NCBI GenBank assembly: GCA_963675665.1
Contig: OY776510.1
Coordinates: forward strand, 339,467 to 403,466
Length of the DNA stretch: 64,000 bases
DNA from: Spirochaetia bacterium
GTDB lineage: Bacteria; Spirochaetota; Spirochaetia; UBA9216
Reading direction: 5' to 3'
Both the position numbers and the translations under genes were made by a program. Below are positions 15,236-60,522 of the stretch, piece by piece (position 1 is the first letter of the stretch; each line of letters opens with the position of its first letter). The notes under the pieces are model-generated. The model was not told the DNA's origin. It searched no databases and was given only the letters and a program-made list of their open reading frames with translations.

Positions 15236-16417
15236 TCATGAGGCAAAGAAGTTACCTCTTTTAAATGTTGTCACCCCAAAAAATGACGTCAAATTCCGTG
15301 GAAGATCGGTAAAAGATGCTCTGATTCCCAGATTCTGCGCCTTTTTTCCTTTTACGTAATAAAGAAGAGGAACATATTCACGTGTATGGTCTGTCCCCTT
15401 AAAAGTCGGATCACATCCGTGGTCGGCTGTAATAACAAGAAGGTCGCCTTCATCCATAAGTTCAATCATTTCGGGCAGTCTGTCGTCTACAGCCCTGACA
15501 GCATCATGATACCCCTGAACATCGCGCCTGTGCCCGTAGACCATATCGGTATCAACCAGATTCACAAAAATAAACTCGGCCTTTTCCGGTTTTACGGAAA
15601 GCAGCTTCAACGTCCTGTCGATACATGCGGGATTTCCTTTATCAGGCCAGGTTTCATCTATGCCCTGTCCATTGAATATATCGCCTATCTTGCCTACGGC
15701 TATGGTTTTAACTCCTTCCGTCCGCAGATGGTCAAGAATTGATTCTTCCGGCAGCGCAATGCTGTAATCATGGCGCCGGCTGGTTCGACTGAAAGCTCCC
15801 GGACGGCCTTCAAAAGGTCTGGCGATTATACGGCCGACCATGTAAGAATCACATAACCGGCGCGTAATTTCACAAATGCGGTAAAGTTCATCAATCGGAA
15901 TAATGTCTTCATGCGCAGCAATCTGAAAAACCGAATCGGCTGATGTGTAACAGATGGGCGCACCTGTTTTCATATGTTCTTCGCCCAGTTCTTCTATTAT
16001 AGCGGTGCCCGACGCAGCTTTATTTCCGAGAATGGTCCGACCGGTTTCTCTTTCAAAAGCATCAACCAGCTCAGACGGAAAAGACGGATATTCCGGCGGA
16101 AAGACAGGAAAAGGTTTATCCAGAACAATACCGGCAAGTTCCCAGTGACCCGTCGTCGTATCCTTTCCGGGAGAAGATTCGTTCATAACGCCGTATGAAG
16201 CAAGCGGGGCGTCGACCGGGGGGCAGCCTTTCAGCTCGTTCCCAAGCAGCATGGACGCGTTGCCGAGTCCGAGTTTCTGTAAACTGGACCAGTCGGCTCC
16301 GCCGGGTACATTTTCACTTATGTGCAGTGCTGTATTCGAACCGACATCCCCGTATCTGTCGGCATCCGGCAGCTCTCCGATCCCGAAACTGTCTATTACA
16401 AGTACTGTCGCACGCAT
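15236..16417 (-). CDS. deoB: phosphopentomutase
   Basis: 393 aa. Alkaline-phosphatase-superfamily DeoB N-terminus MRATVLVIDSFGIGELPDA and conserved metal-binding regions. Confidence 0.85.
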   Translation of the reverse strand: MRATVLVIDSFGIGELPDADRYGDVGSNTALHISENVPGGADWSSLQKLGLGNASMLLGNELKGCPPVDAPLASYGVMNESSPGKDTTTGHWELAGIVLDKPFPVFPPEYPSFPSELVDAFERETGRTILGNKAASGTAIIEELGEEHMKTGAPICYTSADSVFQIAAHEDIIPIDELYRICEITRRLCDSYMVGRIIARPFEGRPGAFSRTSRRHDYSIALPEESILDHLRTEGVKTIAVGKIGDIFNGQGIDETWPDKGNPACIDRTLKLLSVKPEKAEFIFVNLVDTDMVYGHRRDVQGYHDAVRAVDDRLPEMIELMDEGDLLVITADHGCDPTFKGTDHTREYVPLLYYVKGKKAQNLGIRASFTDLPRNLTSFFGVTTFKRGNFFAS

Positions 16418-16557
16418 TATATTAACCTCCGAACTTTGCTGCCGGGGAGGGCAGCTCTACAAAAATATCGGCAAATGCCCTGTTAATATCAATATACTCC
16501 ATTTTCAGCCTTATTCAAAAAAGATTTGCCGTCGGACAGGCTTATGTTATAATTTTC

Positions 16558-18101
16558 TTATGAATACCCATTTCGCTCTTGAAAATCCGATAGAAGTTCT
16601 TACCGGTAAAAAAAGGTCGGAACTTACCAGAGACGATCTTATCAATATTATCAATAAAAAACAGATCGAACGAATTACGTTTCACTACACTGCCATAGAC
16701 GGCAGGGTGAAAGAACTCAGGCTGCCGATTACCGGCCATGAGCAGGCTGAAATAATTCTGGCTGAGGGAGAACGCGTCGACGGCTCTTCGCTTTTCAAGG
16801 GAGTTGTGGACGCCGGTAAATCCGATCTTTACGTAATTCCCGTTTATAAATCCGCTTTCATAAACCCCTTTGATCAGACAAGCCTGGATTTTATCTGCCG
16901 GTTCGTCACAGGCGACGGCGAACTTGCTCCGTTTGCACCGGACAATCTGCTCTCTATTACTCACCAGATACTGAAAGAAGAATTCGACGTGGAATTCAAC
17001 GCGCTTGGAGAACTTGAGTTTTATCTTATCGGGAACCAGGATGTTAATCTTTACCCGCTGCCGAACCAGAAGGGCTATCACGGAAGCAGCCCCTACGTTA
17101 AAACAACCGACATTGTAAACGAAATGCTCCGGGTTATGACCAATATTACAAGCGAAATAAAGTATGCACATAATGAAGTGGGACTCATCAACCGGCTTGA
17201 GAGCGACAACCCCCTTCTCAACGGCAAGCTTGCCGAGCAGGTTGAGATTGAGTTTCTTCCCGCCCCGATTGAAGATGCTGCTGATGTAGTTGTTCTCGGC
17301 AAGTGGCTGTGCCAGAGCATTGCGAACCAGTACGGACTGATTGCCACTTTTTATCCGAAGATTCAGATAGGAGATGCCGGAAGCGGGCTCCATTTTCACA
17401 CAATGCTGAGAAGAAACAATAAGAACATAATGCTGAATGCCGATCAGGAACTTTCCGAGGAAGCGCTGAAACTTATAGGCGGGTTATGCAGATACGCGCC
17501 TACGCTTTCGGCATTCGGTAATATGACCGCAGGTTCTTTTCTCAGACTGGTTCCTCACCAGGAAGCGCCGACAAAGGTCTGCTGGGGATATTCAAACCGC
17601 AGCGCCCTGATAAGGGTACCGCTGGGCTGGCGCAATCTTGACAACCTTGCAATGAAGGTCAATCCGCAGCAGAGACTGAAGGCTGATATCAAGGACAGCC
17701 GGCAGACCGTCGAGTTACGAAGCGCCGACGGAAGCGCAAATACCCACCTGCTGCTTGCCGCCATGACTACCGCCGTGCTATGGGCCTTCCGCAATCCCGA
17801 AGAATCCCTTAAACTGGCGAAGAAAAACTTTGTTGCGGGAAATATTCACAGCGATCCTGAAATGGAAAAGAAACTTATCGATATTGCGACCAGCTGCGTT
17901 GAAACGTCTGAAACCCTTAATGAGCACCGGTCCTATTACGAAGAAGACGGATATTTTACCGAAACACTAATCAACAAGGTTATAGAACTGCTCGAGGCCG
18001 AAAACGACAGGGGTCTTAATAAAAAAATAATATCACTGCCGCCGGAAGACGGCAGGATGCTGGCTGAAGACTTTATAAAAAAAGGATTCAGCAAGTATTA
18101 A
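16558..18101 (+). CDS. glutamine synthetase family protein (divergent GS / gamma-glutamyl ligase)
   Basis: GS-family motifs FDGSS-like (VDGSSLF), GELEFYLI, GSGLHFH and NRSALIRVP. The ORF track 5' extension to 16251 overlaps deoB and is rejected; start taken at ATG 16558. Confidence 0.65.
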
Positions 18102-21749: not shown

Positions 21750-23105
21750 TTAAATCACAAGCATTATCTGAACGTCGCAGACATTTGTATTTGTCGGACC
21801 TGTTACAAGGAGTCCCCCGGTCTGTCTGAAGTAATTGTATGAATCGTTATTGTCCAGGTAATCCTGAATGCTCAGCCCGGCAGCCCTTCCGGCGGCGGCT
21901 ATGTCGTCCGCGGCGAATGCTCCGGCGGCATCGGTCGGCCCGTCGTTACCGTCGGTACCGCCTGAAAGAAAATAAATCTGCGGCGTATCTTTCAGTTCAT
22001 TCAGAAACGCCAGCGCCATCTCCTGATTTCGGCCGCCCAGGCCTTTACCCTTTATCGTAACGGTTGTTTCGCCGCCGCCGATTATACAGGCAGGCCGCGG
22101 AAGCATACCCTGATCTCGAAGGATGTCGCGGCCTATACCCAGGTAGAACTTCGCCGCTTCGGATGCTTCTCCGGTTATCTGTGACGACAGGATTTTTGTG
22201 TTATAACCCAATTCAACAGCCTTGTTCTCCGCAGAGCGGAGCGCCGCGAGGTTTGTCCCGATAAGGATATTCTTTACCCGCTGAAAAACCCCGGAGCCTG
22301 ATTTCGGCGTTTCCGGGACTTCACCGGCAACACCTTTTTCGATAAGTTCGCGGACGGCAGCGGGAAGACGTTCCCCGATTTTGTATTTGGAAATTATCGC
22401 GGCGGCATCGGAAAAGAAGGACCCGTCGGGCACTGTCAGGCCCGATGCTATCGAATCAAGCCTGTCGCCGATTACATCGGACAGAATCAGGTTCAGGACC
22501 TCGGCAGGGAACATTGCCTCGGCAAGCCGGCCGCCCTTGATCCCGGAGAGATGCTTTCTGATGGTATTTATTTCTGCGATTTCAGCTCCGCATTCAAGAA
22601 GCAGTTTCGTTGTCTGCTGTTTTTCATCAAGGCTGAGATTAATTCCGCCGGAAGCATAGGGTTTACACAAAAGGGCTGAGCCCCCGCCCGAGATAAGGTT
22701 GATTACAAGCGACTTTTCATCGGCGGAAGACACGAGCTTCAGAATTTCGGAGGCGGCCCGGCTGCTTTGATCATCGGGTACGGGGTGTCCGGCCTCGATT
22801 GTTTTTATATATTCCAGCCTCTCGGTATGTCCGTATTTTACAGAGATAAGCCCGGCGGTAATCCGTTCACCAAGAATTGCCTCCAGCCCCTTTGCCATCC
22901 TGGCCGTGGCCTTGCCGGCCCCGGTTACAATTATCCGGTTGAACGCAGACAAGTCGTATTCCGCCTTCTGATCCGGCAGAGTTACAGAAAAACGATCTCC
23001 GTCAAGCCTACACTGCTGAAGAAGCATGGCTTCCGGGTCAACCCGTCTTACCGAGGCGTTGAATATCGCCTTAAGATCCTCTCTATACTCTCTGCCTTTA
23101 GTCAT
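21750..23105 (-). CDS. glycerate 2-kinase, MOFRL family (DUF4147 + MOFRL)
   Basis: 451 aa. GckA/TtuD-like architecture; glycine-rich GGGETTV and GGTDGNDGPTD motifs. Confidence 0.7.
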   Translation of the reverse strand: MTKGREYREDLKAIFNASVRRVDPEAMLLQQCRLDGDRFSVTLPDQKAEYDLSAFNRIIVTGAGKATARMAKGLEAILGERITAGLISVKYGHTERLEYIKTIEAGHPVPDDQSSRAASEILKLVSSADEKSLVINLISGGGSALLCKPYASGGINLSLDEKQQTTKLLLECGAEIAEINTIRKHLSGIKGGRLAEAMFPAEVLNLILSDVIGDRLDSIASGLTVPDGSFFSDAAAIISKYKIGERLPAAVRELIEKGVAGEVPETPKSGSGVFQRVKNILIGTNLAALRSAENKAVELGYNTKILSSQITGEASEAAKFYLGIGRDILRDQGMLPRPACIIGGGETTVTIKGKGLGGRNQEMALAFLNELKDTPQIYFLSGGTDGNDGPTDAAGAFAADDIAAAGRAAGLSIQDYLDNNDSYNYFRQTGGLLVTGPTNTNVCDVQIMLVI

Positions 23106-27745: not shown

Positions 27746-27759
27746 TTTTACCACCTTAT

Positions 27760-27782
27760 AGATATCTTATCATCAGATATCT
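27760..27782. promoter_or_regulatory. twin self-complementary AGATATCT octamers (7-bp spacing) just upstream of the GntR start
   Basis: AGATATCT at 27760-27767 and 27775-27782; each is its own reverse complement. Candidate operator. Confidence 0.3.
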
Positions 27783-27873
27783 ACTCATCAGACAAGTTGA
27801 TTCTACACCTGCCTGAATAATATGTCAAGATTTATTGAATACATTTTAAGTCCTTTTTTGGAGATACTAACTG

Positions 27874-27907
27874 TTAGCAGCATGTATGCTCATCAGACAT
27901 GCTGCTA
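27874..27907. promoter_or_regulatory. perfect 11-bp inverted repeat TTAGCAGCATG(12)CATGCTGCTAA in deoC-GntR intergenic region
   Basis: Stem-loop or operator. No T-tract follows, so it is not a canonical terminator. Confidence 0.3.
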
Positions 27908-46914: not shown

Positions 46915-46928
46915 CTCTCTATTATGGG

Positions 46929-47057: not shown

Positions 47058-47058
47058 C

Positions 47059-48021
47059 TTATTCTATATCCCCGGTTTTTCTTCTTTTATAATGATCTAT
47101 TCCAACAGCCAGGATTATGATTATTCCCGTTACAATATTTTGCCAATAGGTTGAAATTCCCATGAGAACTATACCGTTCGATATTACGCTCAACAGTACA
47201 GCCCCTATCACCGTGCCGAGTATTGTTCCGGTTCCTCCGAACATGCTTGTTCCGCCTATTATTACAGCTGCTATTATCGTCATCTCCCAGCCCAGTCCCA
47301 ACGAAATCTGGGCTGAGGTAATTCTTGATGTCATAATAATTCCGGAAAAAGTTGCACATACAGCCGAAAGAACATATACCGAGATCTTAACCATATCAAC
47401 ATTTATTCCGGACAATCTCGAAGCTTCATTGTTCCCGCCCACGCAATAGACATAACGCCCGTAAACTGTATGGTTCAGCACAAAGACCGCCAATAGAGCA
47501 AGAGCTGCCGCAAACCAGACCGAATAAGGTATTCTTAAAAAAGCCCCGCTGCCGATCAGATTAAACCCGGCCGGCAACGGAAACACAGGTTTGCCTTTTG
47601 TAACAACATTCATAATACCTCTTGCGATATACATACTTCCAAGCGTAACTATCATTGCGGGTATTTTAAGTTTTACAATTATAACCCCGTTAAAAACACC
47701 GAACAGGGCCCCGACAAAAACACCCGCGGCTATTGATAAAGGTACCGGCATATTAAAATGCTTCATACAGATTGCGGTTATTAATCCTCCAAGACCGATT
47801 AATGAACCGACGGTAAGATCCAGACCTCCTGAAATAAAAACAAAGGTCACGGCTATTCCGACAATTACCAGATACGAGCTTGTTCGTAAAATATTTACAA
47901 TATTTATCCAGGAATAAAACGACTGATTGACCAATGCTATTAATACACATATTGCCGCCAGCACAATAATTATTCCCAATTCATTTATTGTTTTTATATT
48001 TAGCATAATTTTCTTTTGCAT
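47059..48021 (-). CDS. sugar ABC transporter permease (BPD_transp_2, RbsC/AraH-like)
   Basis: 320 aa polytopic membrane protein of the ribose/monosaccharide ABC permease type. Confidence 0.8.
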   Translation of the reverse strand: MQKKIMLNIKTINELGIIIVLAAICVLIALVNQSFYSWINIVNILRTSSYLVIVGIAVTFVFISGGLDLTVGSLIGLGGLITAICMKHFNMPVPLSIAAGVFVGALFGVFNGVIIVKLKIPAMIVTLGSMYIARGIMNVVTKGKPVFPLPAGFNLIGSGAFLRIPYSVWFAAALALLAVFVLNHTVYGRYVYCVGGNNEASRLSGINVDMVKISVYVLSAVCATFSGIIMTSRITSAQISLGLGWEMTIIAAVIIGGTSMFGGTGTILGTVIGAVLLSVISNGIVLMGISTYWQNIVTGIIIILAVGIDHYKRRKTGDIE

Positions 48022-48143
48022 AATTTTCCCTTTTTCTGAACATAAACCTGACGATATTTTTCTGTTATTATTCCCGCACTATCCTTCAGTGTTTCAGACA
48101 AATTATCGGGGAGGGAATAATACCCTCCCCTGTCAATCTCCTT

Positions 48144-49409
48144 CTATACAACTGTAATAGCAAATAAAATCGGCGCGGAATTTTCAAGTTTGGAGATATA
48201 GTCTATTTTTGTAATCTCAACATCCGGATAAGGATTCTGCCATGCATATTTAATTACCCTTGTTCTTAATCCGAACCTTCTGCTTGCGGCATTTGAGCCG
48301 AACCATGCTTCTTCAGCATCGCTGACCCTCCCTTCTTCAACGCGTTCCCACCAGTCCATTACGTTGACTCCGTATTCTACGGGAATAACCTCCTGCTTAT
48401 TATTGGCATAATGCACAATGTATTCCGCTATTCTTGTTCCGCGTTCCGAATCGAAAGCGCAGGCATGCAGAAAATTAACGGTTTTTCCGGATCTGTTGAT
48501 TTTGATACCCTTAAGCTCTTCAGGTAATGCAAGACCTGTAATTTTCAGGGAGGTTTTTCCTCCCGCAAGTACCAGCAGTCCCCTCACATCAAATTTTACT
48601 CCGCCGAATTCCTGAATTCCCTTGGGCAGATCATGCAGGTCGTGCCCGGCATGATTAAACCAGTCGTCATCAGGCGAAGCGGCAAAATAGTCAGACAGAT
48701 CTATCTGTTCAGGCCTTGCTTCGGGACTTCTCGGAATTATATCGTTGTAGATCCTGATGGAATCAAACCACTCATGCTCCATTGTTGTCTGGAATGTTTC
48801 CATTGTCAGGGCGATCAGGAAAGGAGCCGATTCGGTTAAATCTGAGATAAAATCAATCTCTTTAATTTCCAAATCCGGAAGCGGATTGTTTACTGTATAT
48901 TTATAGATCTTTCGGCCGTCGGTTATGCTAACAACATCTGAACCCAGGGGCTGAAAACCCTTTTTCTCTACTGTAAAATCCAGCACATTTTGATTGTAAA
49001 CAATGGGAATTCTTTCCGCTGCCCCGTTTTCATAATGAATAATATATTCACCAATTTTTGTGTCGTCGGCAACGGAACCTGCCGTCCCCTGAAGGAAATC
49101 TATTTTTTCCGCTTTAAAGTTTACTTTAATTCCCTTAACAGATTCAGGATAATCATACCCCGTTATTTCGGCTGTATTTTTCCCGGCCAGCTGAATCATT
49201 CCCCTGAGGTCAAAGGCCCCCCGGAAATATGCATGAATTCCTTTAGGCAGCAGGGAAAGATTAACGCCGGGCCGGCCGGTCCAGTCATCATCAAGGGCTG
49301 TTGTATAGTAATCCGACAGATCTACAAGATCATCTATAGCCTGCCTGCTGCGCGCAGGGATTTTATTTACAGGTTCAGCCTTGTTTAAATTTGTATCAGA
49401 GTTTTTCAT
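48144..49409 (-). CDS. hypothetical cytoplasmic protein with internal tandem duplication (paralog of 45649-46914)
   Basis: 421 aa, the same length as its paralog. Same two-repeat architecture and conserved motifs (DLSDYY, LDDDW, FDxRG, NPxPD). Confidence 0.5.
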   Translation of the reverse strand: MKNSDTNLNKAEPVNKIPARSRQAIDDLVDLSDYYTTALDDDWTGRPGVNLSLLPKGIHAYFRGAFDLRGMIQLAGKNTAEITGYDYPESVKGIKVNFKAEKIDFLQGTAGSVADDTKIGEYIIHYENGAAERIPIVYNQNVLDFTVEKKGFQPLGSDVVSITDGRKIYKYTVNNPLPDLEIKEIDFISDLTESAPFLIALTMETFQTTMEHEWFDSIRIYNDIIPRSPEARPEQIDLSDYFAASPDDDWFNHAGHDLHDLPKGIQEFGGVKFDVRGLLVLAGGKTSLKITGLALPEELKGIKINRSGKTVNFLHACAFDSERGTRIAEYIVHYANNKQEVIPVEYGVNVMDWWERVEEGRVSDAEEAWFGSNAASRRFGLRTRVIKYAWQNPYPDVEITKIDYISKLENSAPILFAITVV

Positions 49410-49508
49410 TGTAATTACCTCAAGTAAAATATTTAATTTTTGATTGTAAAATCAGGAATAATATATGAAGAAAATCTTCTTATATTATTCCTGTAAGAGT
49501 TAAACCAT

Positions 49509-50510
49509 TTATTTATTTTTATATGTATCGATATTCTCTTTGGTTACAAGCGTAACTCCTGAATCCACAATATCCGGAACGGAATTGCCGTTTAAATGCT
49601 CAATAATGTTCTTTGCTCCAAGATATCCCATTTTATAAAAATCCTGGGCCATTACTCCGTATATCGTGCCTTCTTTAACCGGAGCAAGATTTGTCTCAAC
49701 ATCATCCATTCCTATTGCCATAACTTTTTCCGTTAAACCCATCTCCTTCAGAACAATTCCATAGCTTGCCGGGCCCGCTCCTTCTGTTCCAAAGATTGCG
49801 TTTATCTGGGGGTTTGCTGTCAGCATTGCCGTTAAAACCTCAATAGTCTTTACAGCATCTGCATCGTTATCCTGAACATCAACTATTTCAGCTTTATCAA
49901 GATTTTTCTCTGCAAGATATTTTTTTAAACCTTCTACCTGCAGGATCTGATCCTGAGCATCAAGGTTGCTCATTATAACCCCGATTTTTAATTCTTCACC
50001 GACTTTCTCATGCAGCGCAGCGGCTTCAGCCATTCCGCATGCAATCTTGTCAGTTCCTATAAAAGATATCCTCTGAGACGGATCTTCTGCATCACAACAT
50101 ACGCATGTAACTACTATTCCGGCCTCTTTTGCTCTTTTTAACGCTTCAGTAAAAGCGCTCGGAGCAAACGGGTCTACAATTATACCGTCAGGTCTCTCGG
50201 CAATGGCGGTTTCCAGAGCTTCCAGTGTTTTTTCAAGGCCATGGTCATCGGCACCTATCCACCTTCCGTCAAAACCGAATTCCTCAATGGCTGCGTCCAT
50301 TCCGTATTTTGCTCCCAGCCATACCGGATGGGCCGTCATCGGCGTTACGAAAATAATTCTTACAGGTTTTTCGTCCGCTGCTTTCTGTGATACAGCGCTG
50401 CTTTTTTCTTTTGAGCAACCCGACAATCCCATAAAAAGAACCATGCTAATGCAGATCGCAAACAGAAATAATCTTGTAATCCCCTTCTTCATTCTTTTTC
50501 TCCTGTTCAT
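49509..50510 (-). CDS. sugar ABC transporter substrate-binding lipoprotein (periplasmic-binding-protein type I, RbsB-like)
   Basis: 333 aa. Signal peptide and lipobox LSGCSKEK; PBP1 fold motifs. Confidence 0.8.
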   Translation of the reverse strand: MNRRKRMKKGITRLFLFAICISMVLFMGLSGCSKEKSSAVSQKAADEKPVRIIFVTPMTAHPVWLGAKYGMDAAIEEFGFDGRWIGADDHGLEKTLEALETAIAERPDGIIVDPFAPSAFTEALKRAKEAGIVVTCVCCDAEDPSQRISFIGTDKIACGMAEAAALHEKVGEELKIGVIMSNLDAQDQILQVEGLKKYLAEKNLDKAEIVDVQDNDADAVKTIEVLTAMLTANPQINAIFGTEGAGPASYGIVLKEMGLTEKVMAIGMDDVETNLAPVKEGTIYGVMAQDFYKMGYLGAKNIIEHLNGNSVPDIVDSGVTLVTKENIDTYKNK

Positions 50511-50899
50511 ACAGACTCCCTTTTTGATAAACGGGAACGCCTGCTTATTTTAATACTATTTATAGTATTCTGTTTATGAAATCGAATTTTATTTAATTAT
50601 CAAAAAGATAACTGTTAAAACCGATTTTGTAATTGTATTTTAATATGTAAAATTTCACTCTGCATCATGAGATTCTTAGTATTAACTGTAATTTTTTAAT
50701 ATGTAATTTTAATTATTTAATTGTTTTCGATATTAATAATCAAACTGGTCCTGATTCTGTTTACCATTTTGTTGCCTGAATATTGGTATTAATTTTTTAC
50801 AGCAAATGAGAAAAATCTCATGATGTCCGTGCAGCAGTTAACCGTTATAATTTAGACAACAAAATCATTTTTAATCTAAATAAATAACAGAGGTACCCA

Positions 50900-52081
50900 A
50901 TGAGAGCATTTAATTATTATTCACCTACAAATATTGTATTTGGAAACGGTCGTATAAGTGAAATCGGAAATCTAATCAACAGTGAATGCAGAAAACCGCT
51001 GCTTGTCATGAATAAAGGTCCTTTCAGACAGAATGGAATTTATGATCAAATCAAAAAGTATATTGTTTCAAGTGGTCGTGAATTAATAGAGATGAATGAT
51101 ATAGATTCCAATCCCAGACTTTCAAGCGCAAGAGAAGGAACAAGAATCTGTAAAGAGAAAAAAGCCGACTGCATTATTGCAGTCGGCGGAGGAAGCGCAA
51201 TGGACTGCGCCAAGGTCATTGGAGCTTCGGCTGCATCGGGAACAGATCCTTACGAACTTCTCTGGGGGTCCAAACCTGAAGTAACTGTATCGCTGCCCGT
51301 CATAGCTGTTCCAACTATTGCCGCAACAGGTTCTGAATGCAACCCCACTGCCGTAATTGTTAATGATGAAACAAAAGAAAAGTATTTCTGCAACTGCATT
51401 CATCCTGTAACAACTATTCTTGATCCGGAACTGACCTTAACTGTTCCTCTCAAACTGGCAATATGGGGCACAATGGACATCTTAAGCCATACATTTGAAT
51501 ACTACTTTAACGGAGATACAAATTCGGAATCACAGCTGCGTTTATCAGAATCGATTATACATGCGACAATGAAAGCGCTTGATGATCTTGTTAAAAATCC
51601 CGATGACGTACAGGCCCGTGGAGAATTAATCTGGTGTTCAATCATGGCCTGGGGCGGACTTACAAAAATCGGCCGCGGCGAACCGGACATGGCCTGTCAC
51701 GGACTGGAGGAATCATTCTCAGGCTGGTTTGATACTCACCACGGAGCATGCCTCGGTGTGTTGACTCCGAGATGGATGGATATTGTAAGCAAAAAAATAC
51801 CGGAGCCGTTTGCCAGGTTCGGCCGGAATATTTTTTACATAGAAGAAAAAGATAACATAAAAGCGGCTGCCGCGGCTGTTGCCGAATATAAAACATGGCT
51901 TAAACAGGTTGGAGCCCCCGACACATATTTTGATATAGGGTCAAAAGATTTCTCTGATGAAGATCTAAAACATGTAGCAGAAACAAGCTGCAGAATATAT
52001 AACGGTGCTGTCGGAAGGTTATATAAATTTGATAAAGAAGAATCCCTCAACCTTCTTAAAAGTGGAAAGGTAAAGCTATAA
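50900..52081 (+). CDS. iron-containing alcohol dehydrogenase (Fe-ADH family)
   Basis: 393 aa. N-terminal Fe-ADH Rossmann region (GGGSAMDCAKVIG) and His-rich metal site. Confidence 0.85.
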   Translation: MRAFNYYSPTNIVFGNGRISEIGNLINSECRKPLLVMNKGPFRQNGIYDQIKKYIVSSGRELIEMNDIDSNPRLSSAREGTRICKEKKADCIIAVGGGSAMDCAKVIGASAASGTDPYELLWGSKPEVTVSLPVIAVPTIAATGSECNPTAVIVNDETKEKYFCNCIHPVTTILDPELTLTVPLKLAIWGTMDILSHTFEYYFNGDTNSESQLRLSESIIHATMKALDDLVKNPDDVQARGELIWCSIMAWGGLTKIGRGEPDMACHGLEESFSGWFDTHHGACLGVLTPRWMDIVSKKIPEPFARFGRNIFYIEEKDNIKAAAAAVAEYKTWLKQVGAPDTYFDIGSKDFSDEDLKHVAETSCRIYNGAVGRLYKFDKEESLNLLKSGKVKL

Positions 52082-52236: not shown

Positions 52237-52953
52237 TTACCGTAACCCTTTAAGTCTGCCGCGCAGTAGACCCACTCTCTCTTCCGTTGGAGGAAGAACT
52301 CCGTCAAGGGGATACTCCTTCCCGCAATTCGCCCACTTGTTTTTTCCCATATCGTGATACGGAAGAAGTTCCACCCTTTCGGGAGGGTTATCTGATTCAA
52401 GTATTTCAGCCAGATGATCTACCTGTTCAACAGTATCTGTATAACCCTCAACAATTACCTGTCTTACCCGGTATCTTATGTTGCTGTTCTGCAGATACTC
52501 CAGGCAGCAGAATGCCGAATCCCCTGAAAATGAGCAAATGCGCCCGTATTGGTTCATGTCGGAATGCTTGATGTCCAGAATTACAAGATCAACCAGGCGA
52601 AACAGCTCGGCGACTTTCCTGTTAAAAACGGATCCGGAAGTATCGACAGCCGTGCTGATTCCGTATTTCTTCAAGGACGCTGCCGCTTCGAAAAGAAAAT
52701 CTCCCTGCAGCAGCGGCTCGCCGCCGGAAAATGTAACTCCGCCGTCCTCTCCGTAGTACTCCCGGTAAGACAGGGCCGTAGAAACCACCTTACCAACAGT
52801 ATAGAGTTCACCGCCGTTGAGACTCCAGCTGTCGCGGTTATGGCAGTAAACGCACTGCATGTTACAGCCCTGAAGAAAAAAAACGGTTCTTATCCCGGGC
52901 CCGTCCAGGGTTCCCATGGTTTCTATAGAATGAATTCGACCCTGAATCATCAT
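52237..52953 (-). CDS. pflA: pyruvate formate-lyase activating enzyme (radical SAM glycyl-radical activase)
   Basis: 238 aa. CxxxCxxC cluster ([11 protein letters not shown]) and SAM-binding motifs. Overlaps pflB. Confidence 0.85.
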
Positions 52954-55178
52954 ATTCTCTCAAAATAGGTTCTGGCGATAATTTCTTCCTTCTGAATTTT
53001 TGTAAGCTTGTGAAAATTTACGGCATAGCCGGAAACCCTGACAGTCAGGTTCGGATACTTTCCCGGATTCTCCATTGCATCTTTTAACGTCTGCCTGTCC
53101 AGTACATTCACATTAAGATGATGCCCTGATTTTTTAAAATATCCGTTGATAATGTTGACAAGGTTCTTTTCCGACGACTGCTCATCCGGACCAAGCGTCC
53201 GCGGTGAAACCGAGAAAGTGCAGGAGATACCGTCGCGACAGCAGTCGAATGGAATCTTGGATACCGAGTTAAGCGAAGCAAGGGCCCCCATCTTTTCCCT
53301 GTTATGCATCGGGTTTGCTCCCGGAGCAAATGGTTCGCCGCGCTTCCTGCCGTCCGGGGTTGAACCTGTTTTTCTGCCGTAAACAACATTAGACGTAATA
53401 GTGAGAATTGACAGGCTGTGTTCGGCTTCTCTGTATGTCTCCGTTTCCCTCAACAGGGAAATAAACTCCCCGGTCAGTTCGGCTGCAATTGTGTCTACCC
53501 TGTCGTCATCATTACCGAACTTCGGGAAATCGCCCTCTATCGAGTAATCGGTAATCAGCCCGGTTTTATCGGTAACCGGAGTAACCCTGGCATATTTAAC
53601 AGCCGAAAGGGAATCGGCGGCGACCGACAGCCCGGCTATACCGAAGGCCATAAAGCGTTTTACATCGGTATTGTGCAGGGCCATCTGGGTTTTCTCGTAG
53701 GCGTATTTGTCATGCATATAATGAATAATATTCATCGTGTTGACATATTTTTCACATAACCACTTCAGGTAGAAGGAAAACCGGCTGCGAACCCTGTCAT
53801 AGTCAAGCGGACCCTGGTTCAGCGGCTCCCGGGCCGGGGCGATATATTCCCCGTCCAGTTCATCTCTGCCGCCGTTAAGCGAAACCAGCAGGGTTTTGGC
53901 CAGGTTGCAGCGGGCTCCGAAAAACTGCATTTCTTTTCCTATTTTCATGGCCGATACGCAGCAGGCTATGGCGTAATCATCGCCGTAATCGCTGCGCATA
54001 AGATCATCGTTTTCATACTGGATTGAATCAGTATCGATTGACACCCTTGCGCAGAATTCCTTGAACCCGGAAGGAAGATCTTCCGACCACAGCACAGTAA
54101 GGTTCGGTTCTGCCGAGCTTCCGAGATTGTAAAGGGTCTGAAGCATTCTGTAGGAGGTTCTTGTTACCATAGGAACACCTTCTTCGGTCATTCCACCTAT
54201 AACCTCGGTAATCCACATCGGATCTCCTGCAAAAAGCTCATTGTAATCCGGCGTGCGCAGCTGACGGGCACAGCGCAGTTTCAGAACAAAATCATCGACA
54301 ATCTCCTGGATCCGGCTTTCAGTAATAACACCCTCGCTGAGGTCCCGTTCAAAATAGACGTCGAAGAAGGTACTGACCCGTCCGAGAGACATAGCCGCCC
54401 CGTTCTGCTCCTTGATTGCGCCGAGGTACGCAAAATAAGTCCACTGCACGGCCTCTTTCCCGTTTGCAGCCGGCCTCGATATATCGATTCCGTAGAGCAG
54501 CGCCATTTTTTTCAGCTTTTCAAGAAAATCTATCTGTCTGTACAGTTCCTCAAGCAGACGGATAATTTCGTCGTTCATCTGCTTCTTCGACAGGTTGTCC
54601 TTGTCGCTGATTTTTTCGCCGATAAGCCTGTCGACACCGTAAAGCGCTACTCTTCGATAATCGCCGATTATACGTCCCCGGCCGTAGGCATCCGGCAGCC
54701 CGGTAATAAGCCCCGAACGCCTGAGGGTTTTGATTTCGTCGTCATAAACACGGAAAACCCCGTCGTTATGCGTGGTCCTGAACCGGAAATGGTTCTCAAT
54801 CTCTTCCGAAAGGACCGCCCCGTAGGAAGCGCAGGCGTCCCGGGCCATCCGTATTCCGCCGAAAGGGTTTACACCTCTCTTCAAAGGTTCGTCGGTCTGA
54901 AGTCCGACGATAATTTCGTTGTCTTTATCAATGTATCCTGCCGGATAACTGAGCAGCGACGAGACCTTTTCGGTGTCGATGGACAGCACCCCGTTGTTTT
55001 CGCTTTCAGTCTGCAACAGCTTATCAAGCCGGGCATTTAACAATTCGGTTCGTCGGGTCGGGCCGCACAGGAAATTGCCGTCTTCATAATAGGGGGTATA
55101 ATTAGTTTTAATGAAATTCCGGACATCGATTTCTTCAGTCCAAAGTCCTGCATTGAAATTTCGCCATTCTTTTCGCAT
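52950..55178 (-). CDS. pflB: formate C-acetyltransferase (pyruvate formate-lyase)
   Basis: 742 aa. C-terminal glycyl-radical motif RVSGYAVNF and PFL N-terminus similar to E. coli PflB. Confidence 0.9.
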
Positions 55179-55400
55179 CGGTGACTCCTTTAATAAGTCT
55201 GCCCGGCAAAAAAAACGTCCGGACAGATACTAAAATCTGCCCAGACGGTCGGCATTAAACTTCAACTCCTGATCCCCTGCGGTTTACCCGCTGATCCGTC
55301 AGTCTCAGGATGTTTATATGATAACGGATAATATTCTTTTAGTCCAGTTTCAATCCGGATGCTTCTTGATTTTTACAAATGGTATCATTATAATACCAGT

Positions 55401-55631
55401 ATGAGTTCAATACACATTCGAAACATTGATGAAAAAACACTATCATCGCTGAAAAACCTCGCCGCCCGGCATCACAGGTCCCTGCAGGGAGAGCTGCATT
55501 TCATCCTGGATAGAGCAGCAGAACTGGATATTGAAGAAGATTCCGATGAGGAGCTGAATCTGATAACAGTCAATTCAGGACTTGATTCTTCATGGAGCAG
55601 AGAGGACATATATGACAATAACAGCAGGTGA
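55401..55631 (+). CDS. ribbon-helix-helix antitoxin (VapB/FitA-like)
   Basis: MSSIHIRNIDEKTLSSLKNLAARHHRSLQGE, a typical RHH antitoxin N-terminus. Overlaps the downstream PIN gene by 20 bp. Confidence 0.55.
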   Translation: MSSIHIRNIDEKTLSSLKNLAARHHRSLQGELHFILDRAAELDIEEDSDEELNLITVNSGLDSSWSREDIYDNNSR

Positions 55632-56079
55632 GCTGATATTCATTGATACGAATATCCTTCTTTCAGCCACAGACAGCTCAAGAAAAAACCATGACGAGGC
55701 AAGAAAGCTGCTGAGGGTTATACCGGAAGCGGGATTCAATCCTATATTCTGCGGACAGGTTATCAGGGAATATCTTGTTGTTGCTACCCGCCCCGTCGAA
55801 GCAAACGGCTTCGGCATGTCTGCAGGAGATGCCATCCATAATATTAAACAATTTCAAAAAAGAATTGTTGTCTATGAAGAAAAACGCTCTTCAACTGAAA
55901 TTCTGCAGCATCTGGTAATAAAACATCAGCTGAACGGAAAACGAATACATGATGCAAACATCGCGGCGGTGATGATTACAAACGGAATCAAATACATCCT
56001 AACCGATAATCCTTCGGATTTCAGCTGTTTTGAGGATATAACAGCCGTCAGCTGCATGGAGGCAGTCAAAATCTTTTAG
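55612..56079 (+). CDS. PIN-domain ribonuclease toxin (VapC-like)
   Basis: 155 aa. PIN acidic residues in ELIFIDTNILL... context; translationally coupled to the upstream RHH gene. Confidence 0.7.
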   Translation: MTITAGELIFIDTNILLSATDSSRKNHDEARKLLRVIPEAGFNPIFCGQVIREYLVVATRPVEANGFGMSAGDAIHNIKQFQKRIVVYEEKRSSTEILQHLVIKHQLNGKRIHDANIAAVMITNGIKYILTDNPSDFSCFEDITAVSCMEAVKIF

Positions 56080-56498: not shown

Positions 56499-57803
56499 CT
56501 ACTCCACAACCCTGTAGATGAGCGGCAGTTTTTCCGGTGCTTTTCCACTGATTTTTACAGCCGCTTTAAAGCGACTTACAGCTTCACCAAGATTTTTTTC
56601 ATCATTTACATGGAATACTGCTGTTTCTTCTCCTGCCGAAACCTTGTCGCCCAGCCTTTTTTTCATCCACAACCCCACCGCCGGATCTATCACATCGGAT
56701 TTTGTCTGCCGTCCGGCGCCCAGCAGCATTGCCGATATGCCGATCTCGGTATTATCCATTTCTGAAATCCATCCGTCCGCATCGGCCTTTACCGGTACAA
56801 GCTTTTCCGCCTGCGGCAGTTTTAAAACATCCCTGCAGACTGCCTCATCTCCACCCTGCGCCTTTATCATCTTCGACAGCGCTTCAAGCGCAGCGCCACT
56901 TTCAAGAGCCTTCGTCAGCATAGACATGGCGTCTACCTCGGTTTCGGCAATATCCGCAAACCTCAACATCCAGGCCGATAGCGCGAATGCCACATCCTTC
57001 AGGTCTCCGGGATGCCCGCCGCGCAGTATTTCAATCGCTTCCTGTACTTCAAGCGCATTGCCGACGGCATTGCCGAGCGGCTGGTTCATATCGGTCACAA
57101 GAGCCACCGTTCTGCGGCCGGCAAGTTTTCCGATATCGACCATGGCGCGGGCAAGTTCATATGATTCTTCAGCGGTTTTCATAAACGCGCCGCTGCCTGT
57201 TTTAACATCAAGAACAATGGCGTCAGCACCGGATGCGATCTTTTTGCTCATAATGCTCGCCGCGATGAGCGACATATTATCAACTGTTACTGTTACGTCA
57301 CGCAGCGCATACAGCTTTTTATCGGCCGGCACAAGGTTGCCGGTCTGTCCAATTACCGACAAACCGATTGAGTTGACGAGGTCCTGAAACGCATTCATCG
57401 TCTGTTCAATCGAAAGCCCCGGAATCGATTCGAGCTTGTCGAGGGTTCCTCCGGTGTGCCCAAGTCCCCTTCCCGACATCTTTGCCACCCTTCCGCCGCA
57501 TGCGGCTACCAGGGGCGCCGCCACAAGGGTCGTGGTATCGGCGACACCGCCGGTTGAATGTTTGTCGACCTTTATACCCTTGATGCCGGACAGATCAATC
57601 GTATCGCCGGAGGCAACCATTGAAAGGGTCAAATCAGTTGTTTCCTGCGGGTCCATCCCGTTAAACCAGATTGCCATCAGCAAAGCCGAAGCCTGGTAAT
57701 CGGGAATGCTTCCGTCTACATAACCTTTTATAAAAAAATCAATTTCTTCCTTATCGAGCGCTTCTCCGCTCCTTTTTTTCAGGATTATATCGGTAACGTG
57801 CAT
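56499..57803 (-). CDS. deoA: thymidine/pyrimidine-nucleoside phosphorylase
   Basis: Aligns with E. coli DeoA from MHVTDIILKKRSGEAL... (KHSTGGVADTTTL, SGRGLGHTGGTLDKLESIPG). ATG at 57803 preceded by GGAGGG; the track's 5' extension was rejected. Confidence 0.85.
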   Translation of the reverse strand: MHVTDIILKKRSGEALDKEEIDFFIKGYVDGSIPDYQASALLMAIWFNGMDPQETTDLTLSMVASGDTIDLSGIKGIKVDKHSTGGVADTTTLVAAPLVAACGGRVAKMSGRGLGHTGGTLDKLESIPGLSIEQTMNAFQDLVNSIGLSVIGQTGNLVPADKKLYALRDVTVTVDNMSLIAASIMSKKIASGADAIVLDVKTGSGAFMKTAEESYELARAMVDIGKLAGRRTVALVTDMNQPLGNAVGNALEVQEAIEILRGGHPGDLKDVAFALSAWMLRFADIAETEVDAMSMLTKALESGAALEALSKMIKAQGGDEAVCRDVLKLPQAEKLVPVKADADGWISEMDNTEIGISAMLLGAGRQTKSDVIDPAVGLWMKKRLGDKVSAGEETAVFHVNDEKNLGEAVSRFKAAVKISGKAPEKLPLIYRVVE

Positions 57804-57877
57804 AGGGCCCTCCTGCATTGTTTCAGTATAATCCATATCGGCTGCAAGATCGAATCTTATCATTATTTTTGGAAGTT

Positions 57878-58633
57878 TCAGTTGTCAAGCCTGATCTTTA
57901 CCGATGAGACAATCTCCAATGCCGATGTTAAACCGTCCAGCTCATTTACAAGATCACCGTCACTTCCGTCCGCCGAACTCCTGCCTATAAGCTTCAACTC
58001 AACAGCGCCGGAATCGATTTCGGACGGGACAAATTCAGCCGCATAAACAACCGCGGGTTGACCGCTGCCGTATTCACCTCCGGACCAGTTAGACGCTCTC
58101 GGAACTGCATCTGCAGGCCAGTTTTCATTGAAATCGGTGGAATGATTAAATTCCGCGACTATCCTTACAGGAATGTTTTCGTCCGCCTGAGCCGGATTAT
58201 AATAGACAGTTGAGCTTTTTGTTGCCGTTGCGGAAGTTACAGAATCGGGCAACGGCTCGTTACCACTCGGTAACATCAGGCCGTCGGAATAGCTGATACC
58301 TCTTCGAAACATCCAGTACGGCAACGCCTCTACGCGCCTGTTGCCTCCGTTAAAAATCCATTTCTCTTTTGCTATCTTTTCACTGACAACAACTGTATCA
58401 AGGTAGTTGCCGTCAAGATCTTCAATCCAGACTGCATACTGCGGAGGGTTTTTGGAATGGAATCCCGCAAAAAGCCGAAAGTCGTGAAGCCAGGCCTCAC
58501 CGGCTTCTATTTCAATCATATATTTCCCTTCAGGAACACTTATAAGATCCCTGTTCCCGGCACAACTGCCTGCCAGCAGGCTGAAGATTGCCGTATTTAC
58601 CAGCAATACCAAAATTAATTTCCTATTTTTCAT
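57878..58633 (-). CDS. hypothetical lipoprotein
   Basis: 251 aa. Signal peptide with lipobox LLAGSCAG; no recognised domain. Confidence 0.4.
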   Translation of the reverse strand: MKNRKLILVLLVNTAIFSLLAGSCAGNRDLISVPEGKYMIEIEAGEAWLHDFRLFAGFHSKNPPQYAVWIEDLDGNYLDTVVVSEKIAKEKWIFNGGNRRVEALPYWMFRRGISYSDGLMLPSGNEPLPDSVTSATATKSSTVYYNPAQADENIPVRIVAEFNHSTDFNENWPADAVPRASNWSGGEYGSGQPAVVYAAEFVPSEIDSGAVELKLIGRSSADGSDGDLVNELDGLTSALEIVSSVKIRLDN

Positions 58634-59273
58634 TATTGTCCTCCATTGTTCTGAAAATCATTTCCATCAGTTCTGTCCTGAAAATCATTTCCATCAGTTC
58701 CCCTACCGATTTTTTTATTCTGGACCACCCTTCTTCCGTTTCAAGACTGACTCCGTTGTACACCGGAGCATAATCCGCCTGTAAAGCCAGATAATATATT
58801 CCGGAGGTAATTACAGCTATGGTTGCGTGAATATCTATTTCGGTAGAAGTTCCTTCGGCAAGAGCATTCGTCAGCATCAACCCCTGCTCTTCCGCTTTTT
58901 CCATTATCTTTTTACAGATCTTGTTTCCGGAAGATATCTGCCATCTCAATAATTCTCTCATAACAGCAGAACTTCGGATTTCGTCAATCTGATCAGTTAA
59001 AACCGAAATCGCCGTTTCCCTTTTTTGTTGCAGACTCATACGGTTCTTCAGTAATTCATCCATACCGCCTACCTTCTTAATCCAGTAGTTGTTATCTTCA
59101 GCCCAGCGCTGTATCAGGCCGTCAAAATCTCCGAAATAGCGGTAGATAAGCATCTTTGAGCATCCGGCTTTCTCAGCCACCCTGTTCACCCCTATCCCGG
59201 AAATTCCCGATTCAACCATCACGGAAGTAACGGCGTCAATCAGTCTTTGTTCAGTCTCGGTTCTGTTTTTCAT
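58623..59273 (-). CDS. TetR/AcrR family transcriptional regulator
   Basis: N-terminal TetR HTH (GISGIGVNRVAEKAGCSKMLIYRYF). C-terminus carries an in-frame 27-bp tandem duplication. Confidence 0.8.
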   Translation of the reverse strand: MKNRTETEQRLIDAVTSVMVESGISGIGVNRVAEKAGCSKMLIYRYFGDFDGLIQRWAEDNNYWIKKVGGMDELLKNRMSLQQKRETAISVLTDQIDEIRSSAVMRELLRWQISSGNKICKKIMEKAEEQGLMLTNALAEGTSTEIDIHATIAVITSGIYYLALQADYAPVYNGVSLETEEGWSRIKKSVGELMEMIFRTELMEMIFRTMEDNNEK

Positions 59274-59373
59274 GGATCTCCTCCGGTAACAGGCTCATGT
59301 TACCATTCGGTAACATTAATGTCAACTGAAAAGCGAATAATGATGGAAAAGATTTAGAGTTAACAGGATTTAT

Positions 59374-60522
59374 TCAGCTGAACAGCTCAAGCTGTTCAAA
59401 ATTTACGGGCCGGCGGTTGTCTTCAAGCGTCCGTGTAATATATTCGATATCAAGATGCAGCTCTTCTGAAAGACGTTTCAGCTGGTCCTCGGCCAGCAGA
59501 TTTTCTTCGGCAAACAGGTAGATCAGAGCCTTCTCGGCTATACACGGAACATTAAGCGAATTCATACAGATAGGCTGGGCAGGTTCCGTATCAATGAAAG
59601 CCTCTTTCAAAACCTGATACAGCCGGGAACGCTCCATTTCATTCTTAATTGAAAACAGCTCCTGCTTCAGCGGATCAATATCACCCCGCGAGGCTGCCTG
59701 CCCAAGGGGTTTTAGCACAAGAAAGGTATAATCCTTGCCCGGCAGGTAATGGTGTTCATCACAACGCGTACAGTAATTCGGCTCAAGCGGGTTTTCCTTT
59801 ACCGAATCACCGCCTATTACGATAAGCGGATCGAAATAAAGCGCCGGACATTCTTTTCCGTCAACAAGATAATAGCGGTATGTATAAAATGAATCTGCAA
59901 TGCAGTCGTCATGTTCACAGTAGGCCGTCAGGGTAAAAACATCGGTTGAAACGCCGAGCAGAAACCTGGCTGCAGCATTGAAAATATCACGTCTGAAGTT
60001 CAAAATAAGAGTGGGAAAGATGAAATTCATACCGTACTGCTCGGAATAGCGGTTTACGACGTAGGCTATACGTTCGTCGTAGAAAGATGCTTCATCTATT
60101 ATCCAGGTGCCTGTTTCGAGATGCTTTTCAATAAGCGCCTCAAGTTCAAAAGAGTCCCGGATTGCCGCGATGCTGCCTCCGCAGCGCTCATAGCCCCCTC
60201 GGTATGCAAGAGCATCTTCCGGGTAATCGGGAAAACGTCCGGAATCAAGCGATGAACGGACAAAAAAGACACGGCGCCGGTCCGCTCCGGCAGTGGTCGT
60301 CAGTTCTGCTACTTCCTCGGATTTCATAAGCGCAACACGTGAATCACGCCAGACACGGGAGGAAAATTCCGTTTTCCCTGATCCCATCGGACCTATAACC
60401 AGAATCCGTCGGGATGGGCGTGTGAAATCATGGTGATTGTTCGAATTATGAACATTAACAACCGGAAAGCCTAGGCTCTTTAAAAAACGTTCGGTTTCCG
60501 GGTTCCGTTTCGATTCAACCAA
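59374..60522 (-). CDS. thymidine kinase (TK1) family P-loop protein with ~140-aa C-terminal extension
   Basis: GPMGSGKTE (TK1 GPMFSGKS), IIDEASFYDE (TK1 IDEAQFF) and Cys pairs CEHDDC / CTRCDEHH at TK1 zinc-ribbon positions. Length is 382 aa, against ~200 for typical Tdk. Confidence 0.5.
   Translation of the reverse strand: MVESKRNPETERFLKSLGFPVVNVHNSNNHHDFTRPSRRILVIGPMGSGKTEFSSRVWRDSRVALMKSEEVAELTTTAGADRRRVFFVRSSLDSGRFPDYPEDALAYRGGYERCGGSIAAIRDSFELEALIEKHLETGTWIIDEASFYDERIAYVVNRYSEQYGMNFIFPTLILNFRRDIFNAAARFLLGVSTDVFTLTAYCEHDDCIADSFYTYRYYLVDGKECPALYFDPLIVIGGDSVKENPLEPNYCTRCDEHHYLPGKDYTFLVLKPLGQAASRGDIDPLKQELFSIKNEMERSRLYQVLKEAFIDTEPAQPICMNSLNVPCIAEKALIYLFAEENLLAEDQLKRLSEELHLDIEYITRTLEDNRRPVNFEQLELFS

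Follow-up and report, generated by a model that had tools for sequence, protein, structure and literature searches.

Where does a bacterial microcompartment (BMC) obtain its substrate when the genes that could supply it lie outside the compartment operon? The question is raised by a 64,000-nucleotide stretch of a Spirochaetia genome (contig OY776510.1; the whole stretch is hereafter the window), in which the genes for phosphopentomutase (deoB), a pyrimidine-nucleoside phosphorylase (PyNP, or Pdp) and deoxyribose-phosphate aldolase (DERA, encoded by deoC) occupy three separate loci, DERA being encoded among shell protein genes. A preliminary description of the window had proposed a deoxynucleoside catabolic pathway converging on the microcompartment, with environmental DNA or deoxynucleosides as the physiological substrate. 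The gene map was built from the open reading frame (ORF) listing together with Pfam and NCBIfam scans (about 60 genes), and shell and enzyme calls were judged against curated family cut-offs (NCBIfam equivalogs and Pfam). Relatives of the window DERA were collected by scanning species-representative genomes, and all window proteins were compared by tblastn with the fetched relative loci (labelled L001 to L085). As the full-length DERA matches, N-terminal extension included, come mostly from Spirochaetales/Spirochaetia, the window was placed in Spirochaetes. We consider it probable that PyNP and DeoB deliver deoxyribose 5-phosphate (dR5P) to encapsulated DERA and aldehyde dehydrogenase (AldDH), with the operon derepressed through its DeoR-family regulator as sugar phosphate builds up.

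The microcompartment genes form a tightly packed 12-gene operon on the minus strand, running from 34461 to 28053. A DeoR-family gene heads this operon, and the DERA gene, as described previously, lies within it, as its last gene. The operon and its flanking terminators, in the order of transcription, are as follows.

34570-34590, minus strand: terminator after galE, at the boundary between the gal operon and the BMC operon
33682-34461, minus strand: DeoR-family regulator, operon gene 1 (Pfam HTH_DeoR and DeoRC)
33383-33670, minus strand: BMC-H shell protein 1 (PF00936)
32750-33376, minus strand: CcmP-like BMC-Tdp, 208 aa (NF053796 CcmP, 268 bits, cut-off 340; no Pfam match)
32450-32749, minus strand: BMC-H shell protein 2 (PF00936)
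32144-32446, minus strand: BMC-P pentamer protein 1 (PF03319)
31857-32144, minus strand: BMC-P pentamer protein 2 (PF03319)
31297-31860, minus strand: BMC-Ts, a PduT-like tandem BMC protein (two PF00936 domains)
29889-31307, minus strand: acylating AldDH with an N-terminal encapsulation-peptide-like helix (NF011927, 663 bits, cut-off 403)
29604-29876, minus strand: BMC-P pentamer protein 3 (PF03319)
29335-29607, minus strand: BMC-P pentamer protein 4 (PF03319)
28838-29338, minus strand: RpiB-family protein carrying Asp in place of the catalytic Cys (TIGR01120, 152 bits, cut-off 139)
28053-28832, minus strand: DERA (deoC), the signature enzyme (TIGR00126, 285.6 bits, cut-off 117)
27978-28023, minus strand: terminator closing the BMC operon, a hairpin followed by a U-tract (from fold and sequence)

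The shell genes (29335-33670) comprise two BMC-H, one BMC-Ts, one BMC-Tdp and four BMC-P genes clustered with the enzymes, and the four BMC-P proteins are 33-48% identical to one another, as judged from tblastn cross-hits. Because the BMC-Tdp scores below the CcmP equivalog cut-off, it is termed CcmP-like, and CcmP itself is not claimed. The BMC-Ts matches PduT (PDB 3n79) with an E-value of 1.4e-32; alignment to PDB 3pac places an Asn at the position of Cys38, the Fe-S pore cysteine of PduT. All ORFs between 28053 and 34461 were accounted for, and none encodes a phosphotransacylase (PTAC), an alcohol dehydrogenase (AlcDH) or PduS; the loss of the pore cysteine fits the absence of PduS at the locus.

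By gene content, the locus is a sugar-phosphate-utilising (SPU) microcompartment operon of type SPU2. It fits the published description, in which the only enzymes are AldDH, a PF01791 protein and a PF02502 protein, the shell set consists of one or two BMC-H, a BMC-P triplet plus an extra copy, a CcmP-like Tdp and one Ts, and the hosts are mostly Bacteroidetes and Spirochaetes (Sutter 2021 supplement, PMC8217296). The window locus shares with SPU2 the restriction to AldDH, DERA and the RpiB-like protein (ribose-5-phosphate isomerase, RPI), the shell set, the N-terminal encapsulation peptides on AldDH and DERA, the Spirochaete host and the predicted substrate. Structurally it differs in nothing except its Ts, which, unlike about 80% of SPU2 Ts proteins, has no pore cysteine. 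What had been described as capture of deoC by the microcompartment is true of this genome, but it is no peculiarity of it, being instead the defining feature of a known and widespread BMC type. SPU compartments are among the most widespread of all, with more than 280 loci in 26 phyla.

Further analysis of the DERA sequence revealed that the family alignment begins at residue 40, preceded by a 39-residue extension whose N-terminus, MDENELIESITKEVVSRLK..., is amphipathic and resembles an encapsulation peptide, as does the amphipathic N-terminus of AldDH, MEIDEKAVSEIVKNVIEEL. The best matches of DERA, in Spirochaetales/Spirochaetia metagenome-assembled genomes, are 81%, 78%, 72% and less identical over the full length, extension included; more distant full-length matches come from Lentimicrobiaceae/Bacteroidales and one member of Kiritimatiellia. 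The extension is thus kept in the SPU2 relatives, whereas free-standing DeoC proteins lack it and align only from about residue 40, at 53-62% identity. From these N-termini we infer that DERA and AldDH are encapsulated in the shell. A tblastn search with three different DERA queries found no second DERA in the 64 kb, so the earlier claim of a single deoC holds at the scope of the window.

Three genes outside the operon had been assigned to the pathway, two as enzymes that lead from deoxynucleosides to dR5P and one as a thymidine kinase (TK). They and their immediate neighbours are listed below.

15236-16417, minus strand: DeoB phosphopentomutase, with its own promoter and without an encapsulation peptide (NF003766, 505.8 bits, cut-off 256; TIGR01696, 452 bits, cut-off 341)
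56499-57803, minus strand: PyNP/Pdp, without an encapsulation peptide (NF004747, 584 bits, cut-off 559)
57878-58633, minus strand: lipoprotein of 251 aa between the TetR gene and PyNP, with a signal peptide and lipobox
58623-59273, minus strand: TetR-family regulator heading the pdp unit (PF00440)
59374-60522, minus strand: long TK1-family homologue, 382 aa, with the P-loop GPMGSGKT and the Walker B motif IIDEASFY

The identification of deoB stands, with both models well above their cut-offs. The gene called thymidine phosphorylase is a nucleoside phosphorylase at the position given, but not strictly a DeoA: the thymidine phosphorylase model TIGR02643 failed (474 bits, cut-off 571) and the PyNP equivalog passed, which points to a Pdp/PyNP acting on uridine and thymidine. 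Its ORF spans 56499-57863; since the family alignment starts from residue 21 and the ATG at 57803 has a Shine-Dalgarno sequence, GGAGGG, in front of it, the gene is likely to comprise 56499-57803. It belongs to a pdp unit of TetR, lipoprotein, PyNP and DUF2721 genes. The lipoprotein has only a faint DUF2271 match and no relative in the PDB. The order TetR-lipoprotein-PyNP is kept in L082, L084 and L085, whereas the Bacteroidota homologue of the lipoprotein does not adjoin PyNP, so the link between the two is clade-specific.

To judge by its motifs and scores, the product of 59374-60522 is a divergent long homologue of TK1. In addition to the P-loop and Walker B motif, it passes the Pfam TK model (29.1 bits, cut-off 20.6) and matches the TK1 of PDB 1xx6 (E-value 6.6e-7), which bears out its description as TK1-like; its score on the NCBIfam equivalog is only 37 bits (cut-off 183), and it carries additional insertions and is extended at its C-terminus by about 120 residues. 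Public sources label its 1729 homologues thymidine kinase, and the closest among the matches listed are 64-70% identical and mostly from Spirochaetota. Two further statements about this gene did not survive the analysis. A shared operon with the phosphorylase gene is not supported, as a promoter and a palindrome lie between them and as, in L081, a 91%-identical relative, the TetR-lipoprotein unit is about 9 kb away from TK, with other genes in between; no terminator was detected between TK and the TetR unit in the window, and read-through would be possible. Nor is it a catabolic step: TK belongs to salvage, an anabolic process, and is conserved across Spirochaetota, and as a kinase acting on thymidine it would be a competitor of PyNP, not a supplier of the compartment.

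The TK-like gene has conserved neighbours of its own. It overlaps by 8 bp the gene of a 292-aa membrane protein that has no family match (the pair covering 59374-61393, minus strand), and a divergent gene for a 313-aa NUDIX protein with an unassigned N-terminal region of 160 aa (61482-62423, plus strand) faces the pair. The trio was kept in all four relatives examined.

Comparison with the relatives supports a link of deoB and PyNP to the compartment, and this apparent link is the main addition of the present analysis. In four related loci (L005, L007, L008 and L009), deoB comes right after DERA, in the same orientation and 5-78 bp away. The closest relative (L001) has DERA, a glycerate-kinase-like gene and a deoB whose product is 84% identical to the window DeoB, while in L006 DERA is followed by a TK-like gene (62% identity) and then by PyNP (67%). 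An SPU locus from Kiritimatiellia (L078) closes with DeoB and PyNP. Even around a free-standing DERA, on a Spirochaetia contig (L030), the order is PyNP, DeoB, an OmpA/Ig-like gene and DERA. Over the whole sample, deoB or pdp occurs at most 10 kb from DERA in 7 of 26 BMC-linked loci and in 10 of 54 free-standing deoC loci. Under an assumption of random placement, three single-copy genes would fall within 42.6 kb of a genome of about 5.4 Mb with a chance of about 2e-4.

Gene order among the closest genomes suggests how the present layout arose. The succession of TK, the TetR-lipoprotein-PyNP unit, the gal operon and the SPU2 operon is kept in L084 and in L085/L002. L084, a contig of 5.38 Mb whose lipoprotein is 99% identical to that of the window, lacks both an 11.3-kb low-GC segment (40942-52081) and a FitA/PIN pair (55359-56079). 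Compared to L001, the window carries in the interval between DERA and deoB additional genes for a GntR regulator, an MBL-fold protein, a TRAP transporter, a second GntR regulator, two oxidoreductases and glnA. The deo genes are indeed separate units, as had been noted, but the arrangement looks less like a designed layout than like a decayed ancestral cluster, loosened by insertions.

Regulatory sequences were analysed next to these genes, and the elements located in the window are as follows.

34473-34501, minus strand: BMC operon promoter, TTGACA-N17-TACACT
34489-34504: DeoR-like box, TGTTTGACAAATAACA, overlapping the -35 hexamer of the BMC promoter (one mismatch)
34529-34542: second palindrome, TGTTA-N4-TAACA, upstream of the BMC promoter; its spacing is unlike that of the conserved N6 box and its role is uncertain
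59297-59325, minus strand: near-consensus promoter of the pdp unit, TTGACA-N17-TAACAT
59298-59315: perfect palindrome, ATGTTACC-N4-GGTAACAT, overlapping the pdp-unit promoter

The regulator heading the BMC operon is 31% identical to E. coli DeoR over its full length. It scores about equally on the SrlR, GlpR, DeoR and AgaR models and falls below every one of these NCBIfam equivalog cut-offs, so the DeoR assignment is made at the family level only. Searches with the DeoR-box query TGTTA-N6-TAACA found the box in all the Spirochaete SPU2 promoter regions that were examined. If one mismatch at most is allowed, these promoters hold nine boxes in 1.9 kb compared to 0.07 per kb in the rest of the loci, a count reached in none of 2000 shuffles. 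The enrichment is confined to the N6 spacing. Searches with N4 and N8 returned chance-level counts, the TetR palindrome described below apart. In L008 and L010, an exact box precedes the first shell gene by 32 bp. By contrast, no box was found upstream of the SPU2 loci of Bacteroidota and Kiritimatiellia, where a nearby DeoR gene is missing. In some Spirochaete/Treponema SPU2 loci, a short-chain dehydrogenase gene that is absent from the window either separates a divergent DeoR gene from the first shell gene or immediately precedes DERA (L003/L004, about 4345-5100; L012, about 9225-10000).

The palindrome at the pdp-unit promoter is of another kind. A near-copy lies at 58258-58275, about 1 kb downstream and inside the lipoprotein coding sequence. 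Both copies are kept in a 98% relative, the promoter copy also in the 91% relative, and in both L081 and L082 the TetR gene has the palindrome upstream. The common half-site ATGTTAC raised the possibility of a DeoR site, which we rejected because the spacing is N8, because three genomes conserve the palindrome specifically in front of the TetR gene, and because the SPU2 promoters contain no N8 boxes. The two palindromes are probably operators of the TetR-family protein, and pdp is most likely governed by this repressor.

Taken together, these data allow us to propose a route for the substrate. PyNP would split pyrimidine (deoxy)nucleosides in the cytosol to the base and (deoxy)ribose 1-phosphate, and cytosolic DeoB would convert deoxyribose 1-phosphate to dR5P, which may cross the shell through the BMC-H pores or the gated CcmP-like Tdp. 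Inside, DERA would cleave dR5P into glyceraldehyde 3-phosphate, leaving for glycolysis, and acetaldehyde, which the co-encapsulated acylating AldDH would convert to acetyl-CoA before it could escape. The DeoR-family product is predicted to repress its own operon at the TGTTA-N6-TAACA box over the -35 element, presumably until a sugar phosphate such as dR5P lifts the repression. The genes deoB and pdp would be transcribed from separate promoters, the latter probably under the TetR-family repressor. We infer the direction of flux and environmental DNA as the source of nucleosides. The route is supported because DeoB, PyNP, DERA, AldDH and the RpiB-like protein all score above their family cut-offs, the locus matches SPU2, the relatives show the synteny, and the box is enriched; the literature points the same way. 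DNA-derived dR5P was proposed as the SPU substrate (Axen 2014, PMC4207490; Sutter 2021, PMC8217296; Dwyer 2024, PMC11585597), one proposal being that SPU compartments metabolise what DNA degradation yields (Sutter 2021, PMC8217296), another that deoxyribonucleosides are broken down and dR5P enters the shell, and an SPU6 DERA is active in vitro (Dwyer 2024, PMC11585597). A 2025 preprint on Asgard archaea describes for an SPU-type system a nucleoside phosphorylase, a phosphodeoxyribomutase and an encapsulated DERA acting in this order (PMC12747264).

Several observations weigh against this route. With no PTAC, AlcDH, PduS or Fe-S Ts, recycling of NAD+ and CoA within the shell is left unexplained. 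A check of the regions upstream of deoB, PyNP, the TetR gene and TK found no DeoR box even with up to two mismatches tolerated, so that co-induction of supply and consumption is not supported; the search upstream of the phosphorylase gene and deoB that the preliminary description had suggested thus came out negative. There is no sign in the window genome of a DeoR regulon common to the three loci. Of the idea that deoxynucleosides feed the compartment, then, the gene identities, the synteny and the agreement with the published SPU model stand, but shared DeoR control does not. The window scans also revealed no nucleoside transporter, nuclease, purine nucleoside phosphorylase (deoD) or cytidine deaminase (cdd). 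Ribonucleoside catabolism and salvage likewise make use of PyNP and DeoB. Linkage is limited as well: deoB or pdp lies within 10 kb of DERA in only about a quarter of the BMC-linked loci (7 of 26). The operon moreover encodes an RPI that, judged from alignment, lacks the catalytic cysteine and has no obvious role. Finally, we know of no SPU microcompartment whose physiological substrate has been demonstrated in vivo.

Some of these points would be accommodated if deoB, pdp and TK served ordinary salvage and ribonucleoside catabolism and lay near the BMC operon through inherited synteny without a functional tie, the compartment receiving dR5P or another 2-deoxy sugar phosphate from elsewhere, for example from a kinase acting on free deoxyribose. 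The separate promoter and TetR-type operator of pdp and the lack of a DeoR box at the three supply genes agree with this explanation. So do the housekeeping-like conservation of TK across Spirochaetota, the acceptance of uridine as well as thymidine that is expected of PyNP from its family, and the fact that most BMC-linked DERA loci have neither deoB nor pdp within 10 kb. It does not account for deoB standing in the operon directly after DERA in four related loci, for TK-PyNP following DERA in L006, or for deoB-PyNP closing the SPU locus of another phylum; such repeated independent linkage argues for function. No PfkB-type deoxyribokinase was seen in the window scans, either. We regard an origin of the compartment substrate independent of these genes as unlikely.

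Less likely still is a compartment that mainly scavenges fermentation aldehydes, in which AldDH oxidises acetaldehyde or DERA condenses acetaldehyde with glyceraldehyde 3-phosphate to dR5P. A secondary fermentation has been proposed for Atribacteria SPU loci, DERA is reversible (Dwyer 2024 introduction, PMC11585597), and the host is fermentative, with PflB and its activase at 52237-55178 (TIGR01255, 1089 bits) and an Fe-type alcohol dehydrogenase (Fe-ADH). The condensation, however, would use up glyceraldehyde 3-phosphate with no evident gain, and both the DeoR-type regulator with its E. coli DeoR-like operator at the head of the operon and the linkage of deoB and pdp to the operon in relatives speak against aldehyde scavenging. 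The RpiB-like protein raises a further alternative, namely that the true substrate is some other sugar phosphate, such as a rare pentose or hexose phosphate, handled by this protein and the aldolase, with the DERA label misleading. Alignment to PDB 3he8 and 3ph3 shows an Asp at the catalytic Cys65/66 position, although the protein still scores above the cut-off of its hidden Markov model. The same replacement, in the motif xDGAGIG, occurs in 29 of 29 BMC-linked RPIs (the window and 28 related loci) from Spirochaetes, Bacteroidota, Chloroflexi, Acidobacteriota and others, and its universality suggests altered chemistry. Nearly all SPU subtypes retain RPI alongside DERA, with which it forms a complex, and it has no assigned role (Dwyer 2024, PMC11585597); moreover, the glycerate-kinase-like gene is a conserved neighbour. 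In the SPU6 RPI, though, the active-site cysteine is likewise non-conserved and isomerase activity is almost absent, and the protein may be a packaging partner only (Dwyer 2024, PMC11585597). The DERA, for its part, scores more than twice its equivalog cut-off, and its core is 54-62% identical to free-standing DeoC proteins including that of B. subtilis. We therefore judge a different sugar phosphate to be the most improbable of the explanations considered, and retain the supply of dR5P by PyNP and DeoB as the preferred one.

The pathway proposed here bears comparison with several known systems. E. coli deoCABD likewise combines nucleoside phosphorylase, phosphopentomutase and DERA activities with a DeoR-family repressor, and the E. 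coli DeoR operator, TGTTAGAA-TTCTAACA, has the TGTTA-N6-TAACA geometry that is also apparent, with one mismatch, at the promoter of the window DERA operon. However, the single E. coli operon corresponds in the window to three units (15.2-16.4, 28.0-34.5 and 56.5-59.3 kb) spread over 42 kb, with no deoD seen. The window phosphorylase is of the PyNP type, the regulator is only 31% identical, and deoB and pdp have no box; in addition, the window DERA and AldDH bear encapsulation-type extensions and their genes sit among shell genes. In the reconstruction of the SPU-type system of Hodarchaeales (Asgard), a nucleoside phosphorylase and a phosphodeoxyribomutase encoded outside the operon similarly supply dR5P to encapsulated DERA and AldDH. 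That system differs in its archaeal host, a DERA fused to a flavoprotein domain, a BMC-P with a DNA-binding disordered tail and PduS/MNdh, none of which is found in the window. As in the Eut and Pdu compartments, the signature enzyme would free a volatile toxic aldehyde within the shell for an acylating AldDH (PRK15398 family) to trap as acyl-CoA. Compared to Eut and Pdu, which act on small neutral molecules, the window system has no PTAC or alcohol dehydrogenase partner and a charged sugar phosphate as its proposed substrate.

The locus itself adds no new compartment type or idea, and the proposal of DNA or deoxynucleosides as substrate, while reasonable, is already published for the SPU type. 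What is new is the linkage of deoB and PyNP that is seen in relatives, along with an operator of the DeoR type; both add to the SPU2 papers and do not contradict them; the main texts of the Kerfeld-lab papers (PMC4207490, PMC8217296, PMC11585597) mention no phosphopentomutase, nucleoside phosphorylase or DeoR operators. With deoB in the operon, TK-PyNP after it and an E. coli-like DeoR operator, the Spirochaete clade provides evidence that is cleaner, though circumstantial, than that of the published locus surveys, and makes the DNA-scavenging hypothesis directly testable. A stronger version, which we put forward tentatively and hold to be slightly less than an even chance, is that the Spirochaete SPU2 operon is run by a dR5P-responsive DeoR orthologue with an E. 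coli-type operator, and that deoB or TK plus PyNP were recruited into or beside the operon. If true, a BMC type uncharacterised in vivo would thereby gain its first evidence on the physiological substrate from regulation and genomic context, with operator, repressor and inducer as a simple handle for testing. For annotation, deo genes scattered around shell genes should be taken as SPU2, and the RpiB-like gene at SPU2 loci should not be scored as a functional ribose-5-phosphate isomerase. SPU-type compartments now extend to Asgard archaea (PMC12747264).

Two conserved neighbours of the pathway genes were also noted.

21750-23105, minus strand: MOFRL/DUF4147 glycerate-2-kinase-like protein, a conserved downstream neighbour of SPU2 DERA
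12694-15201, minus strand: OmpA-like protein of 835 aa with FlgD-Ig, CHU_C and Big domains, beginning 34 bp after deoB

The glycerate-2-kinase-like gene follows DERA in the two closest relatives (L001, 2135-3490; L002, 11739-13103); in the window the GntR, MBL-fold and TRAP transporter genes part it from DERA. No catabolic step of dR5P calls for a glycerate kinase. The OmpA-like protein is weakly similar to the Leptospira adhesin Lsa66, and its adjacency to DeoB is conserved, as a homologue lies between DeoB and the free-standing DERA of L030 (2625-5630). The two neighbours could contribute extra steps, such as the handling of glyceraldehyde or the capture of DNA at the surface, the tie of the OmpA/Ig-like protein to nucleic-acid capture being pure speculation.

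The intergenic region between DERA and GntR (27755-28052) contains two sites that strongly resemble promoters and, in repeated copies, the motif TCATCAGA(C/T)A; these copies are likely operators of the GntR/FCD regulator controlling the MBL and TRAP genes. Elsewhere in the window, the low-GC segment at 40942-52081 has a GC content of 0.33-0.41, its flanks one of 0.44-0.50. It carries genes for an AraC-type response regulator, a histidine kinase, a CUT2 sugar ABC transporter, the Fe-ADH and two proteins of 421 aa that have no family match. Together with the FitA/PIN toxin-antitoxin pair, it looks like a strain-specific insertion. Its CUT2-type transporter (44-50.5 kb) was considered as a nucleoside or deoxyribose importer and rejected, as the island is absent from the closest relative and the binding protein is weakly like ribose, allose or rhizopine binders. 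PflB (52950-55178) was likewise rejected as a glycyl-radical signature enzyme of a BMC, being a true pyruvate formate-lyase. At 5405-6562 (minus strand), a DDE transposase gene (DUF4372 and DDE_Tnp_1) lies between the DUF1850/TAXI binding-protein genes and a fused TRAP permease gene, and appears to be an insertion sequence within a TAXI-TRAP transporter operon.

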